Virus record (IMG/VR): IMGVR_UViG_2711768075_000012
Location: 1 to 21,846 of that record
Length of the DNA: 21,846 bases
DNA from: a virus
Lineage: Duplodnaviria > Heunggongvirae > Uroviricota > Caudoviricetes
Reading direction: 5' to 3' (one strand)
Below are positions 4,821-6,544 of this stretch, piece by piece. The notes under the pieces are model-generated. The model saw only the letters and a program-made list of their open reading frames with translations, was not told the DNA's origin and did no database searches. Position 1 is the first letter of the stretch; every line of letters begins with the position of its first letter. The position numbers and the translations under genes are program-made.

Positions 4821-5384
4821 ATGAGGCTAACCGTGGGTAAGTATCACTGGAAAGTAGAAAAACAGCCTGAGTGGTACGTGAAAGCTGTCAGAAAAACTAT
4901 CGCAGCGTTGCCGGGTGGTTACGCTGAAGCAGCTGACTGGCTGGATGTAACAGAGAACGCATTATTTAACCGCCTTCGTGCCGATGGCGATCAGATTTTC
5001 CCGCTGGGATGGGCAATGGTTTTACAGCGCGCGGCTGGCACTCACTACATTGCGGATGCTGTCGCACAGTCTGCTGGTGGGGTGTTCGTATCGCTTCCTG
5101 AAATTGAGGAAGTAGAGAACGCCGATATAAACCAGCGCCTGCTGGAAGTCATCGAACAGATCGGGAATTACTCAAAGCAGATTCGTTCGGCAATCGAAGA
5201 TGGGGTCGTGGAGCCACACGAGCAGACAGCAATTAATGATGAGTTGTATCTGTCAATTTCGAAGCTCCAAGAGCATGCAGCACTGGTCTACAAAATCTTT
5301 TGCGCTCCAGAAAAGAGTGACGCCCGCGAGTGTGCAGCTCCGGGCGTCGTGGCGTTTTGTGTCTGTGGAGAAACTAACGCATGA
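4821..5384 (+). CDS. hypothetical early regulatory protein, 187 aa (possible CII-like/YdaT-type functional analogue)
   Basis: Immediately downstream of cro in the rightward early operon. No diagnostic motif recognised; the functional guess is positional only. Confidence 0.35.
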   Translation: MRLTVGKYHWKVEKQPEWYVKAVRKTIAALPGGYAEAADWLDVTENALFNRLRADGDQIFPLGWAMVLQRAAGTHYIADAVAQSAGGVFVSLPEIEEVENADINQRLLEVIEQIGNYSKQIRSAIEDGVVEPHEQTAINDELYLSISKLQEHAALVYKIFCAPEKSDARECAAPGVVAFCVCGETNA

Positions 5385-5529
5385 ACAGTTTAACGGCAAA
5401 TAACCGTTTGTCGCAACAGCTGGTGGTCAGTGTCGCTGAACACCTGTTGTTACGGCATGAATGCAGATTACCAAATCACCTGGCTGTAAGTAACCACAGA
5501 GAACTTTACCTGACTGTGGGGGGCGAGTT

Positions 5530-5709
5530 GTGCAGGAACTTAACCGCTGGTTTCGTGATGGAAGAGGGCTTTATGTCCATGTTATTCGTTGGGAGCCAGA
5601 AACACAGCGCGTTATCTATCTTCGCAAAGACTACCCGCATGAGTGCTTTAGTCCTTTGTGGAAATTCAGGCGTGATTTTGTTGAGTGTGAAGGACCACCA
5701 GCACATTGA
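5530..5709 (+). CDS. small hypothetical protein (59 aa from a GTG start); possibly the C-terminal part of a frameshifted gene
   Basis: Manual translation of the frame offset from listed ORF 5381: VQELNRWFRDGRGLYVHVIRWEPETQRVIYLRKDYPHECFSPLWKFRRDFVECEGPPAH, stop at 5707-5709. Protein-like composition. Upstream G6 run (5518-5523) is where the frame of ORF 5381 would join it. Confidence 0.25.
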   Translation: MQELNRWFRDGRGLYVHVIRWEPETQRVIYLRKDYPHECFSPLWKFRRDFVECEGPPAH

Positions 5710-5794
5710 TTCTGCCATTCCGGGACGTTACACTGTTCAGGCACCTTATAAAGCGGGTGCCGGGATTGGCGTCCTGAAATTGATTACTGAGCAT

Positions 5795-5816
5795 AACCGC
5801 GCTCATGCGGTTTTTT
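5795..5816 (+). terminator. candidate rho-independent terminator
   Basis: aaccgc-gctcat-gcggtt followed by tttt (6-bp stem including two AU pairs, then T-run). Downstream of the small early ORFs and upstream of rha. Confidence 0.35.
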
Positions 5817-5986
5817 CGTGTCATGAGCATTGCTACGCCCAAATTATGGTGGGGCGTACAGGGCCGACTTCGGTCGGGCCGGGTTCGGTAGTCTCCGGTA
5901 ACGCCAACCCTGTACGTCTCACCACCTCTGTGATTGGCGTCCCATGTGGTGAGTTTTCTAAAAAACTGACTACCGGGGCTGTCACT

Positions 5987-6544
5987 ATGACTACTCTCCC
6001 AACCCTCTCTCAACCTGAAATTGCCATCGTTGATGGTCAGGCTGTTACATCTTCTTTGGCTGTTGCTGACTTCTTCTCTAAACGTCATGACGATGTTCTG
6101 AAAAAGATTCGCATTTTGGATTGTTCTCCAGAGTTTTGTGCCCGCAATTTTGCGGAGACATCAATTTTGGTACGCCAGCCCAACGGCGGTACTCGCAAAC
6201 TACCTTGCTATCAAATAACCCGCGATGGCTTTGCGTTTCTTGCTATGGGTTTCACGGGTAAACGTGCTGCCCAGTTCAAAGAGGCATACATCAATGCCTT
6301 TAACCAGATGGAGAAACAGCTTTCAAAGCCCGCTGTACCGAGCGACGTTGCACATAACGCCAGTGTTCTCTATTCCTACATTTCATCAATTCATCAGGTC
6401 TGGTTGCAGCAGCTTTATCCCATGCTGGAAAAAGCTGAATCACCTCTGGCTGTAAGTCTGTATGACCGAATTAACGATGCGGCATTTCTTGCCCGTCTTA
6501 TTCATTCGTCGCTGAACTCTTCAGAGGTAAGGGGGCGCAAATGA
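5987..6544 (+). CDS. rha: Rha-family phage regulatory protein, 185 aa
   Basis: N-terminus MTTLPTLSQPEIAIVDGQAVTSSLAVADFFSKRHDDVLKKIRIL and YQITRDGFAFLAMGFTGKRAAQFKEAYINAFNQME are typical of the Phage_pRha domain. The listed 387-aa ORF starts 606 nt upstream, but that extension is not Rha-like. Confidence 0.65.
   Translation: MTTLPTLSQPEIAIVDGQAVTSSLAVADFFSKRHDDVLKKIRILDCSPEFCARNFAETSILVRQPNGGTRKLPCYQITRDGFAFLAMGFTGKRAAQFKEAYINAFNQMEKQLSKPAVPSDVAHNASVLYSYISSIHQVWLQQLYPMLEKAESPLAVSLYDRINDAAFLARLIHSSLNSSEVRGRK

Follow-up and report, generated by a model that had tools for sequence, protein, structure and literature searches.

Between an intrinsic terminator (stem 5795-5812 plus T-run) and the start codon of the rha gene (ATG 5987), the phage DNA analysed here, a stretch of 21,846 nucleotides referred to as the window, carries a compact folded element. 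What kind of RNA is it, and does it act on the gene that follows? An earlier note on this DNA had placed the element correctly between these two landmarks, had judged its three-stem fold unlikely to arise by chance, and had left its function between a put/nut-like antitermination RNA, a processing site and a small RNA. Our analysis identifies the folded element as an ordinary member of a long-known phage RNA family, the C4 antisense RNAs, described in phages P1 and P7 in 1990-95. We consider it very probable that it belongs to an immI-type module of the P1/P7 kind, in which the C4 antisense RNA would repress rha translation after RNase P processing, in the early-right operon of a lambdoid phage resembling mEp460 and cdtI. 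Shown directly are family membership, a conserved fold, and complementarity that co-varies with its targets.

All three helices named in the earlier note are present. The stem GCGTACAGGG (5854-5863) / CCCTGTACGT (5908-5917) forms 10 base pairs, one of them G·U, the hairpin CCGAC-TTCG-GTCGG sits at 5864-5877, and the CCGG/CCGG stem pairs 5879-5882 with 5895-5898. The closing stem is, however, longer than the 10 bp proposed, since both the Rfam model and the minimum free energy (MFE) fold extend it to 17 bp (5847-5863/5908-5924), and the second hairpin reaches 5 bp (G5878-U5899 to G5882-C5895) around a 12-nt loop. The MFE of the 88-nt stretch is −47.7 kcal/mol, compared with −30.1 ± 2.9 in 200 dinucleotide-preserving shuffles (z = −6.0), none of which folded as well. 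That the fold exceeds chance is supported in agreement by the shuffle z-score, the Rfam E-value and the pairing among homologues.

The whole window was scanned against Rfam 15, and two matches exceeded the curated thresholds, RF01695 (C4 antisense RNA) and RF01394 (isrK). The C4 match on the plus strand scores 82.3 bits (threshold 45, E = 4e-15), spans model positions 1-87 of 87 and is the best-scoring family at the position of the element; the MFE structure is the RF01695 structure. The C4 model matches the annotated c4 gene of phage P1, and the P1, Gifsy-1 and Stx2-F004 loci score 69-79 bits. isrK RF01394 and C4 RF01695 both occur at the homologous positions of Gifsy-1 and the Stx2-converting phage F004.

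Covariation among related phages, proposed as a check in the earlier note, is also found. An IMG/VR pattern scan for the conserved core gave 120 loci with 78 distinct C4 sequences, and pairing in the Rfam/MFE structure was counted on a plain MAFFT alignment of the 78. Paired cells amounted to 92.8%, versus 75.9% when partners were shuffled and 32-51% when partners were slid by 1-3 columns. Compensatory changes on both sides were observed in 16 of the 27 pairs, 12 of them in the closing stem and 4 in hairpin 1. Hairpin 2 shows no variation in its stem in this alignment, as the search pattern itself prescribed that stem; beyond this set of sequences compensated forms exist, with GCCGG/CCGGU here and GCUGG/CCAGU in P1 and F004. 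The UUCG loop of hairpin 1 is replaced by GAAA in Gifsy-1, which indicates that the loop caps the helix and carries no sequence information. The window phage is an mEp460/cdtI/PhiR55-like lambdoid phage; phage 1720a-02 carries the 88-nt element unchanged (100% identity), and an identical core was found by the pattern scan at 12 IMG/VR loci.

Table 1 Positions of the C4 module, its predicted target sites and neighbouring features in the window
Feature	Position	Strand	Basis or description
Promoter-like site	5706-5734	+	−35 TTGATT (5706-5711), 17-nt spacer, −10 TACACT (5729-5734)
isrK-type sRNA, a1/b1 leader of the C4 module	5741-5817	+	RF01394; intrinsic terminator at its end
a1 TTGGCGT	5766-5772	+	Loop of second isrK hairpin; perfect complement of a′
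b1 GATTACTGA	5782-5790	+	9 pairs with b′ including 2 G·U; to 5792, 11 pairs including 3 G·U
C4 antisense RNA, extent of Rfam match	5842-5929	+	RF01695
Closing stem, 5′ arm	5847-5863	+	Pairs with 5908-5924; 12/17 pairs changed on both sides among 78 homologues
Predicted mature C4 RNA, 79 nt	5848-5926	+	Homology with annotated 77-nt P1 C4; ends inferred
Hairpin 1 CCGAC-UUCG-GUCGG	5864-5877	+	Rfam model, MFE; 4/5 pairs co-vary; 100% of cells paired
Hairpin 2 GCCGG/CCGGU, 12-nt loop carrying b′	5878-5899	+	Rfam model, MFE
b′ CGGUAGUC	5886-5893	+	Hairpin 2 loop
a′ ACGCCAA	5901-5907	+	Unpaired between hairpin 2 and 3′ arm; position as P1 a′ (CUGUCAA)
Closing stem, 3′ arm	5908-5924	+	Rfam model, MFE, homologue alignment
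Alternative hairpin CTCACCAC (5918-5925) / GTGGTGAG (5946-5953), then TTTT	5918-5957	+	Read from sequence; a2 in loop; 5′ arm overlaps C4 3′ arm
a2 TTGGCGT	5934-5940	+	7 Watson-Crick pairs with a′; 8 nt past predicted C4 3′ end
b2 GACTACCG	5968-5975	+	8 Watson-Crick pairs with b′; 2 further G·U to 5977
rha, 185 aa, predicted controlled gene	5987-6544	+	Pfam Phage_pRha 2.2e-27

Reading the P1 sequence places a′ in the unpaired nucleotides that separate hairpin 2 from the 3′ arm, and b′ in the loop of hairpin 2. In the window, the corresponding segments are complementary to a2 and b2 downstream and to a1 and b1 upstream, all on the same strand. The relative position of a2 is that of P1 a2, and b2 corresponds in the alignment to P1 b2, which lies at the ribosome-binding site of icd. 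Here b2 ends 11 nt 5′ of the rha ATG and overlaps a G-rich, Shine-Dalgarno-like CCGGGG; the overlap is partial and the Shine-Dalgarno weak, which counts against the main reading. The motif TTGGCGT-N(5-35)-GAYTACYG has exactly three occurrences in the 21.8 kb, versus 0.01 expected, and these are a1b1, the antisense (reverse) strand of C4, and a2b2.

This complementarity is maintained as the sequences diverge. For 57 distinct a′/b′ combinations with full flanks, we asked whether the correct flank contained a perfectly complementary run of 7 nt or more. Downstream, this was so for 77% of cognate loops (b′) and 88% of cognate bulges (a′), and upstream for 72% of loops and 96% of bulges, against 2.2-2.7% for non-cognate combinations in each of the four comparisons. 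The alignment of the window, Gifsy-1 and F004 provides an example of such a swap, as F004 has a′ GUCCUAA with a1/a2 TTAGGAC, and b′ CCUUGAUUG with b2 CAATCAAGG. In most loci the site proximal to the ribosome-binding site overlaps the Shine-Dalgarno and ends 7-12 nt before the start codon.

The upstream partners a1 and b1 lie within the isrK match, which scores 59.3 bits (threshold 50) over the full length of the model and contains two hairpins at its 5′ side, the second of which holds a1 in its loop, and then an intrinsic terminator. The upstream candidate terminator of the earlier note is therefore real, and is the terminator of the isrK element. The c4-a1b1 model (RF03163) stays below threshold here, with 21.6 bits over 5728-5780 of the 46.7 needed; its threshold is reached in P1 and Gifsy-1. 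A promoter-like site, which would place the transcription start at about G5741, precedes isrK and aligns with TTGACA-N17-TATATT in Gifsy-1 and TTGACT-N17-TATATT in F004, an alignment from which its activity may be inferred. Its −10 is weaker than in either phage, which counts against the main reading. The promoter scan did not report this site, which with 8 of 12 matches falls below the cut-off. The earlier note had passed over three features of the locus, namely that the element belongs to a known family, that the upstream terminator is part of isrK, and that targets lie at the rha ribosome-binding site.

The ends of the mature RNA can be predicted from P1, where C4 is annotated at NC_005856 48343-48419 (77 nt), starting at the G after AU and ending in GCCACC. 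The context in the window matches on both sides, with A5846 U5847 preceding G5848 G5849 at the 5′ side and C5922 C5923 A5924 C5925 C5926 at the 3′ side. Such a U−1/G+1 with a 3′ A-CC resembles a tRNA acceptor end, as in RNase P substrates. Hartmann and colleagues are said to have reported in 1995 that RNase P processes the C4 precursor of P1/P7. Homology with P1 C4 makes it most likely that RNase P excises a stable RNA of about 79 nt here as well. The small RNA and processing site options of the earlier note were right in kind, given the membership in the C4 family, whose P1/P7 members are cut by RNase P and act by base-pairing. ARAGORN found no tRNA or tmRNA in the window, and the reading of the tRNA-like acceptor end as a tRNA gene was rejected on that ground.

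The predicted target gene follows directly. Besides Phage_pRha, its product matches PHROGs annotated as transcriptional regulators and anti-repressors, an annotation by which Rha may be an antirepressor. Genes after homologous C4 elements are mostly of the antirepressor type: Derepression (8), Rha (3), Bro-N (3), ORF6N (2), P22_AR_N and KilA-N. P1 Ant1 carries an ANT/KilAC domain and Gifsy-1 AnrP carries ORF6N. In the window, the module follows cII/DUF4222 in a lambdoid early operon.

For transcription, processing, repression and the role of Rha we reason from P1 and Gifsy-1, by analogy with which the module would operate as follows. Transcripts would begin at the promoter-like site or arrive from upstream, and many would end at the isrK terminator, yielding an IsrK RNA of about 77 nt that bears a1 and b1. 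In read-through transcripts the C4 fold would be present, and since its closing stem (5′ U−1/G+1, 3′ A-CC) mimics a tRNA acceptor stem, RNase P would cut between U5847 and G5848 to release the stable RNA. C4 would then pair with the rha mRNA leader through a′:a2 and b′:b2, the latter over 5968-5975/7, covering the rha ribosome-binding site and blocking Rha synthesis. The C4 of a resident prophage would act likewise in trans, as a second, RNA-based immunity over an antirepressor-type gene, and a1/b1 in IsrK or in the leader could compete for a′/b′ and so modulate repression. In P1, translation of icd is repressed and Rho-dependent polarity then acts on ant; with no icd-like small ORF between b2 and rha, that route cannot apply literally here, which counts against the main reading.

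The one mildly new angle of this work is a re-reading of a known system. In Gifsy-1, an inhibitory helix forms again in the compensatory pairs G28A/C162U and G31A/C159U (Hershko-Shalev et al. 2016, PMC4825925). With numbering from the transcription start that puts the orf45 start at A107, G28 and G31 lie in a1 (UUGGCGU, nt 26-32 of Gifsy-1 IsrK, the equivalent of a1 in the window), and C159 and C162 lie in a′ (ACGCCAA, nt 158-164). The mutated positions identify the Gifsy-1 inhibitory helix as the a1:a′ interaction and, falling precisely on sites defined in P1, suggest that IsrK may be a decoy for C4. As an anti-antisense decoy, IsrK would titrate a′/b′ of C4 through a1/b1 and free the rha ribosome-binding site, making a three-RNA switch of decoy, antisense and target on one strand, its state set by the ratio of isrK termination to read-through and by the hairpin at 5918-5953. 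We hold this proposal as tentative and somewhat doubtful. If true, the published Gifsy-1 mechanism, in which a small RNA acts on its own mRNA, would become a case of C4 sequestration, and it would apply as well to the many Stx and other lambdoid phages with the isrK-C4 tandem. STnc1160 is, by its RF01695 match at the Gifsy-1 locus, the C4 homologue, and when co-expressed with IsrK it enhanced the IsrK effect instead of relieving it (PMC4825925), which weighs against a simple picture in which C4 represses and IsrK titrates.

The best-surviving alternative to repression by a free antisense RNA takes the Gifsy-1 experiments at face value. The C4-shaped fold would then be mainly one of two alternative states open to the isrK read-through mRNA: in the inactive state, the leader a1 region pairs with a′ and the 3′ arm, and IsrK supplied in trans displaces this pairing, so that an upstream ORF (uORF) from AUG 5846 is translated and ribosomes enter rha, with no free antisense repressor. 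At the homologous locus, read-through from the isrK promoter yields an isrK-orf45-anrP mRNA, short IsrK in trans raises anrP translation 139-fold, and the activation depends on orf45 and is backed by the compensatory mutants (PMC4825925). The Gifsy-1 authors attribute control to alternative structures and the 45-codon upstream ORF, not to C4 repression at the anrP ribosome-binding site (PMC4825925). The conserved AUGG at the 5′ end of C4 contains Gifsy-1 AUG107, which aligns with AUG 5846; the latter is here in frame with rha, with no stop between them. Among the 57 homologues, however, the equivalent frame is erratic, stopping after 14-50 codons or continuing deep into the next gene or out of frame with it. 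The AUGG is absent from 9 of the 57 loci, and in P1 the frame from the conserved AUG meets a stop after 14 codons. A conserved uORF from AUG 5846 was accordingly rejected as a general feature of these loci. The downstream sites a2/b2 co-vary with a′/b′ as strongly as a1/b1, which a switch in cis does not require, and a stable processed RNA is found in both P1 and Gifsy-1, where STnc1160 is processed from the isrK read-through transcript (PMC4825925). Gifsy-1 lysogens transcribe both STnc1160 and IsrK at high levels under all conditions examined. We regard a locus governed mainly by the switch in cis as a possibility of clearly minor weight; it is not exclusive of the antisense model, with which it is compatible and partly overlaps.

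Control by transcription termination, as in P4 immunity, is improbable. Here pairing of C4 with a2, or competition between the C4 closing stem and the hairpin at 5918-5953 plus TTTT, would decide termination before rha. Such an 8-bp hairpin does exist, overlapping the C4 3′ arm with a2 in its loop, similar hairpins with altered arms recur among homologues, and the P4 CI RNA with seqA/seqC was named as a structural analogue by Hershko-Shalev et al. (PMC4825925). As a terminator, though, it has a 20-nt loop and just four U residues, was not reported by the terminator scan and is absent from the MFE structure of the 266-nt context. The U-tract is missing at this place in Gifsy-1, F004 and most other homologues, and co-variation of the arms is weak, with runs of 7 or more in 42% of cognate versus 15% of non-cognate comparisons. 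The position of b2 on the ribosome-binding site in most loci argues for translational control, as in the antisense reading.

A simple protein-coding role for the region, with the element as the N-terminal part of a longer antirepressor, as in GenBank KF030445 (288 aa), is very unlikely. An ORF at 5381-6544 is open through the element in frame with rha, KF030445 annotates its CDS across it, and the PHROG 821 and 995 profiles have 100-143 extra N-terminal positions. Substitutions in homologues nevertheless keep base pairs and not codons, the reading frame through the element is not conserved, the Rha domain begins about 20 residues after ATG 5987, the supposed CDS would contain an intrinsic terminator and two Rfam RNA families, and in a related record two annotated ncRNAs occupy the stretch, the CDS starting only beyond them. 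Least probable of all, and barely credible, is the put/nut-like RNA of the earlier note, acting in cis on RNA polymerase: an early-operon position just past a terminator and a compact multi-stem form would suit it, but HK022 put and lambda nut gave no model match in 5600-6100 at E up to 1, where the supported covariance-model matches are only C4, isrK and the sub-threshold c4-a1b1, the others being chance-level microRNA models, and the variable unpaired segments co-vary with flanking mRNA complements, an antisense signature that a polymerase-binding RNA does not need.

As a discovery the element carries little weight, since C4 and its target motif are already in Rfam and the isrK-C4 tandem has been annotated or discussed for Stx2, Gifsy-1 and APSE phages. 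Its value is practical and concerns annotation, as several GenBank records and two PHROG profiles run an rha or antirepressor CDS across both ncRNAs. The window prophage is likely to possess a second, RNA-based layer of immunity over an antirepressor-type gene, which would be relevant to the induction of mEp460-, cdtI- and Stx-type prophages.

Among the closest described counterparts is P1, whose record NC_005856 annotates a1, b1, the 77-nt C4, a2 and b2 ("repression of icd ant translation"), then icd and ant. The window shares with P1/P7 C4 the long closing stem, the tetraloop hairpin, the second hairpin with its b′ loop and the unpaired a′ that follows, together with the AU|GG 5′ processing context and the CCACC 3′ end. 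Shared with P1 are also the one-strand order a1-b1-C4-a2-b2-ribosome-binding site with the same spacing and the start-codon context GGC(N)GT(N)ACTATG. The two differ in the length of C4 (77 nt in P1, 79 nt in the window) and in a′/b′ specificities, and the C1-controlled operon of a plasmid prophage contrasts with the lambdoid early-right operon here. The icd-like ORF is absent, so that b2 directly precedes rha, and Rha (Phage_pRha) is not homologous to P1 Ant (ANT/KilAC domain).

At the Gifsy-1 isrK-STnc1160/orf45-anrP locus, isrK (RF01394) and C4 (RF01695) likewise stand in tandem ahead of an antirepressor-type gene, a1, a′ and a2 are identical (TTGGCGT/ACGCCAA), and the promoter position is conserved. 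The Gifsy-1 module, however, follows the Q antiterminator gene and not cII, its downstream ORF6N protein is unrelated to the Rha of the window, its hairpin 1 has a GAAA loop, and its 45-codon uORF stops where anrP begins; in the window the same frame is fused to rha. The P4 CI RNA with seqA/seqC resembles the module in being processed from the leader of its own operon and in having complementary sites upstream and downstream, but acts by premature transcription termination (PMC4825925), whereas the target proximal to the ribosome-binding site here points to translational control. In APSE phages, isrK and C4 are paired in the same order by a Bro-N gene (bioRxiv 10.1101/2020.03.17.996009). In the Stx2-converting phage F004 (LC710661), an "isrK Hfq binding RNA" and a "C4 antisense RNA" are already annotated upstream of a Rha-family gene; F004 differs in its a′/b′ specificities, with targets changed to match, a difference known from sequence.

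A megablast search with window 5380-6000 as the query showed that in many related phages, mEp460, PhiR40_1 and Stx2a_1447 among them, homology stops at query position 547. In window coordinates this is 5926, where the C4 antisense RNA is predicted to have its 3′ end, and the coincidence suggests a recombination or module boundary directly after the RNA. Stx2c phages (LC7278xx) share 93% identity with the window across the 621-nt region, but only 79.5% within C4 (5842-5929). The C4 RNA is where divergence from these phages concentrates, as would be expected if immunity specificity were being exchanged.

A hairpin has its 5′ arm in common with the 3′ arm of C4 (see table). Comparable hairpins recur in homologues with changed arms, but the comparison of cognate with non-cognate cases yielded a weak signal. 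The hairpin may be a weak terminator, or another conformation that the precursor can adopt.

Features around the isrK and C4 RNAs
Feature	Window position	Strand	Remarks
DUF4222 small ORF, 59 aa	5530-5709	+	PHROG 1343; between the cII-like gene and isrK
Hairpin CTCACCAC/GTGGTGAG followed by TTTT	5918-5957	+	5′ arm common with C4 3′ arm; a2 in loop

A subgroup of C4 homologues in IMG/VR (loci L007, L049, L079, L092 and L099) possesses clear a1/b1-type complements upstream, and no a2/b2 complements were found downstream of C4 at these five loci. The small protein specified by the gene that follows, MEGVAGMN..DWHQADIIAALRKRGTTLAAVSREAGLS, looked Ner-like by eye. This subgroup may represent a differently wired C4 variant.

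Upstream, the last codons of the DUF4222 ORF are overlapped by the -35 element of the putative isrK promoter. IsrK appears to be homologous to the immI leader of phage P1, because the P1 a1/b1 leader (L124 12218-12312) matches both the c4-a1b1 model (RF03163; 51 bits) and, below threshold, the isrK model (35 bits, E 5e-6). The leader in the window reaches only 21.6 bits with the c4-a1b1 model.

A mechanical ORF on the plus strand (5381-6544) runs in the rha frame across isrK and C4 without a stop, and in the GenBank record KF030445 a CDS spanning both non-coding RNAs is annotated as a 288-aa 'putative antirepressor'. Since the window Rha covers only positions 144-324 of PHROG 821 and 101-285 of PHROG 995, mis-annotation of start codons over the isrK and C4 RNAs seems to be widespread, judging from these alignments.

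The locus can be compared with that of Salmonella phage Gifsy-1 (L122), in which isrJ, a tRNA-Arg and isrI (2235-2309, 2544-2617 and 2805-2902) lie downstream of anrP; none of the three was found in the window by whole-window Rfam and ARAGORN scans. The AUG at the 5′ end of C4 (5846) is conserved and equivalent to AUG107 of Gifsy-1 orf45, and the frame that follows it is erratic among 57 homologues. In Gifsy-1 this AUG opens a 45-codon uORF that terminates in an ATGA overlap with anrP, whereas in the window the frame (5846-5986, plus strand) contains no stop and is instead fused to rha.
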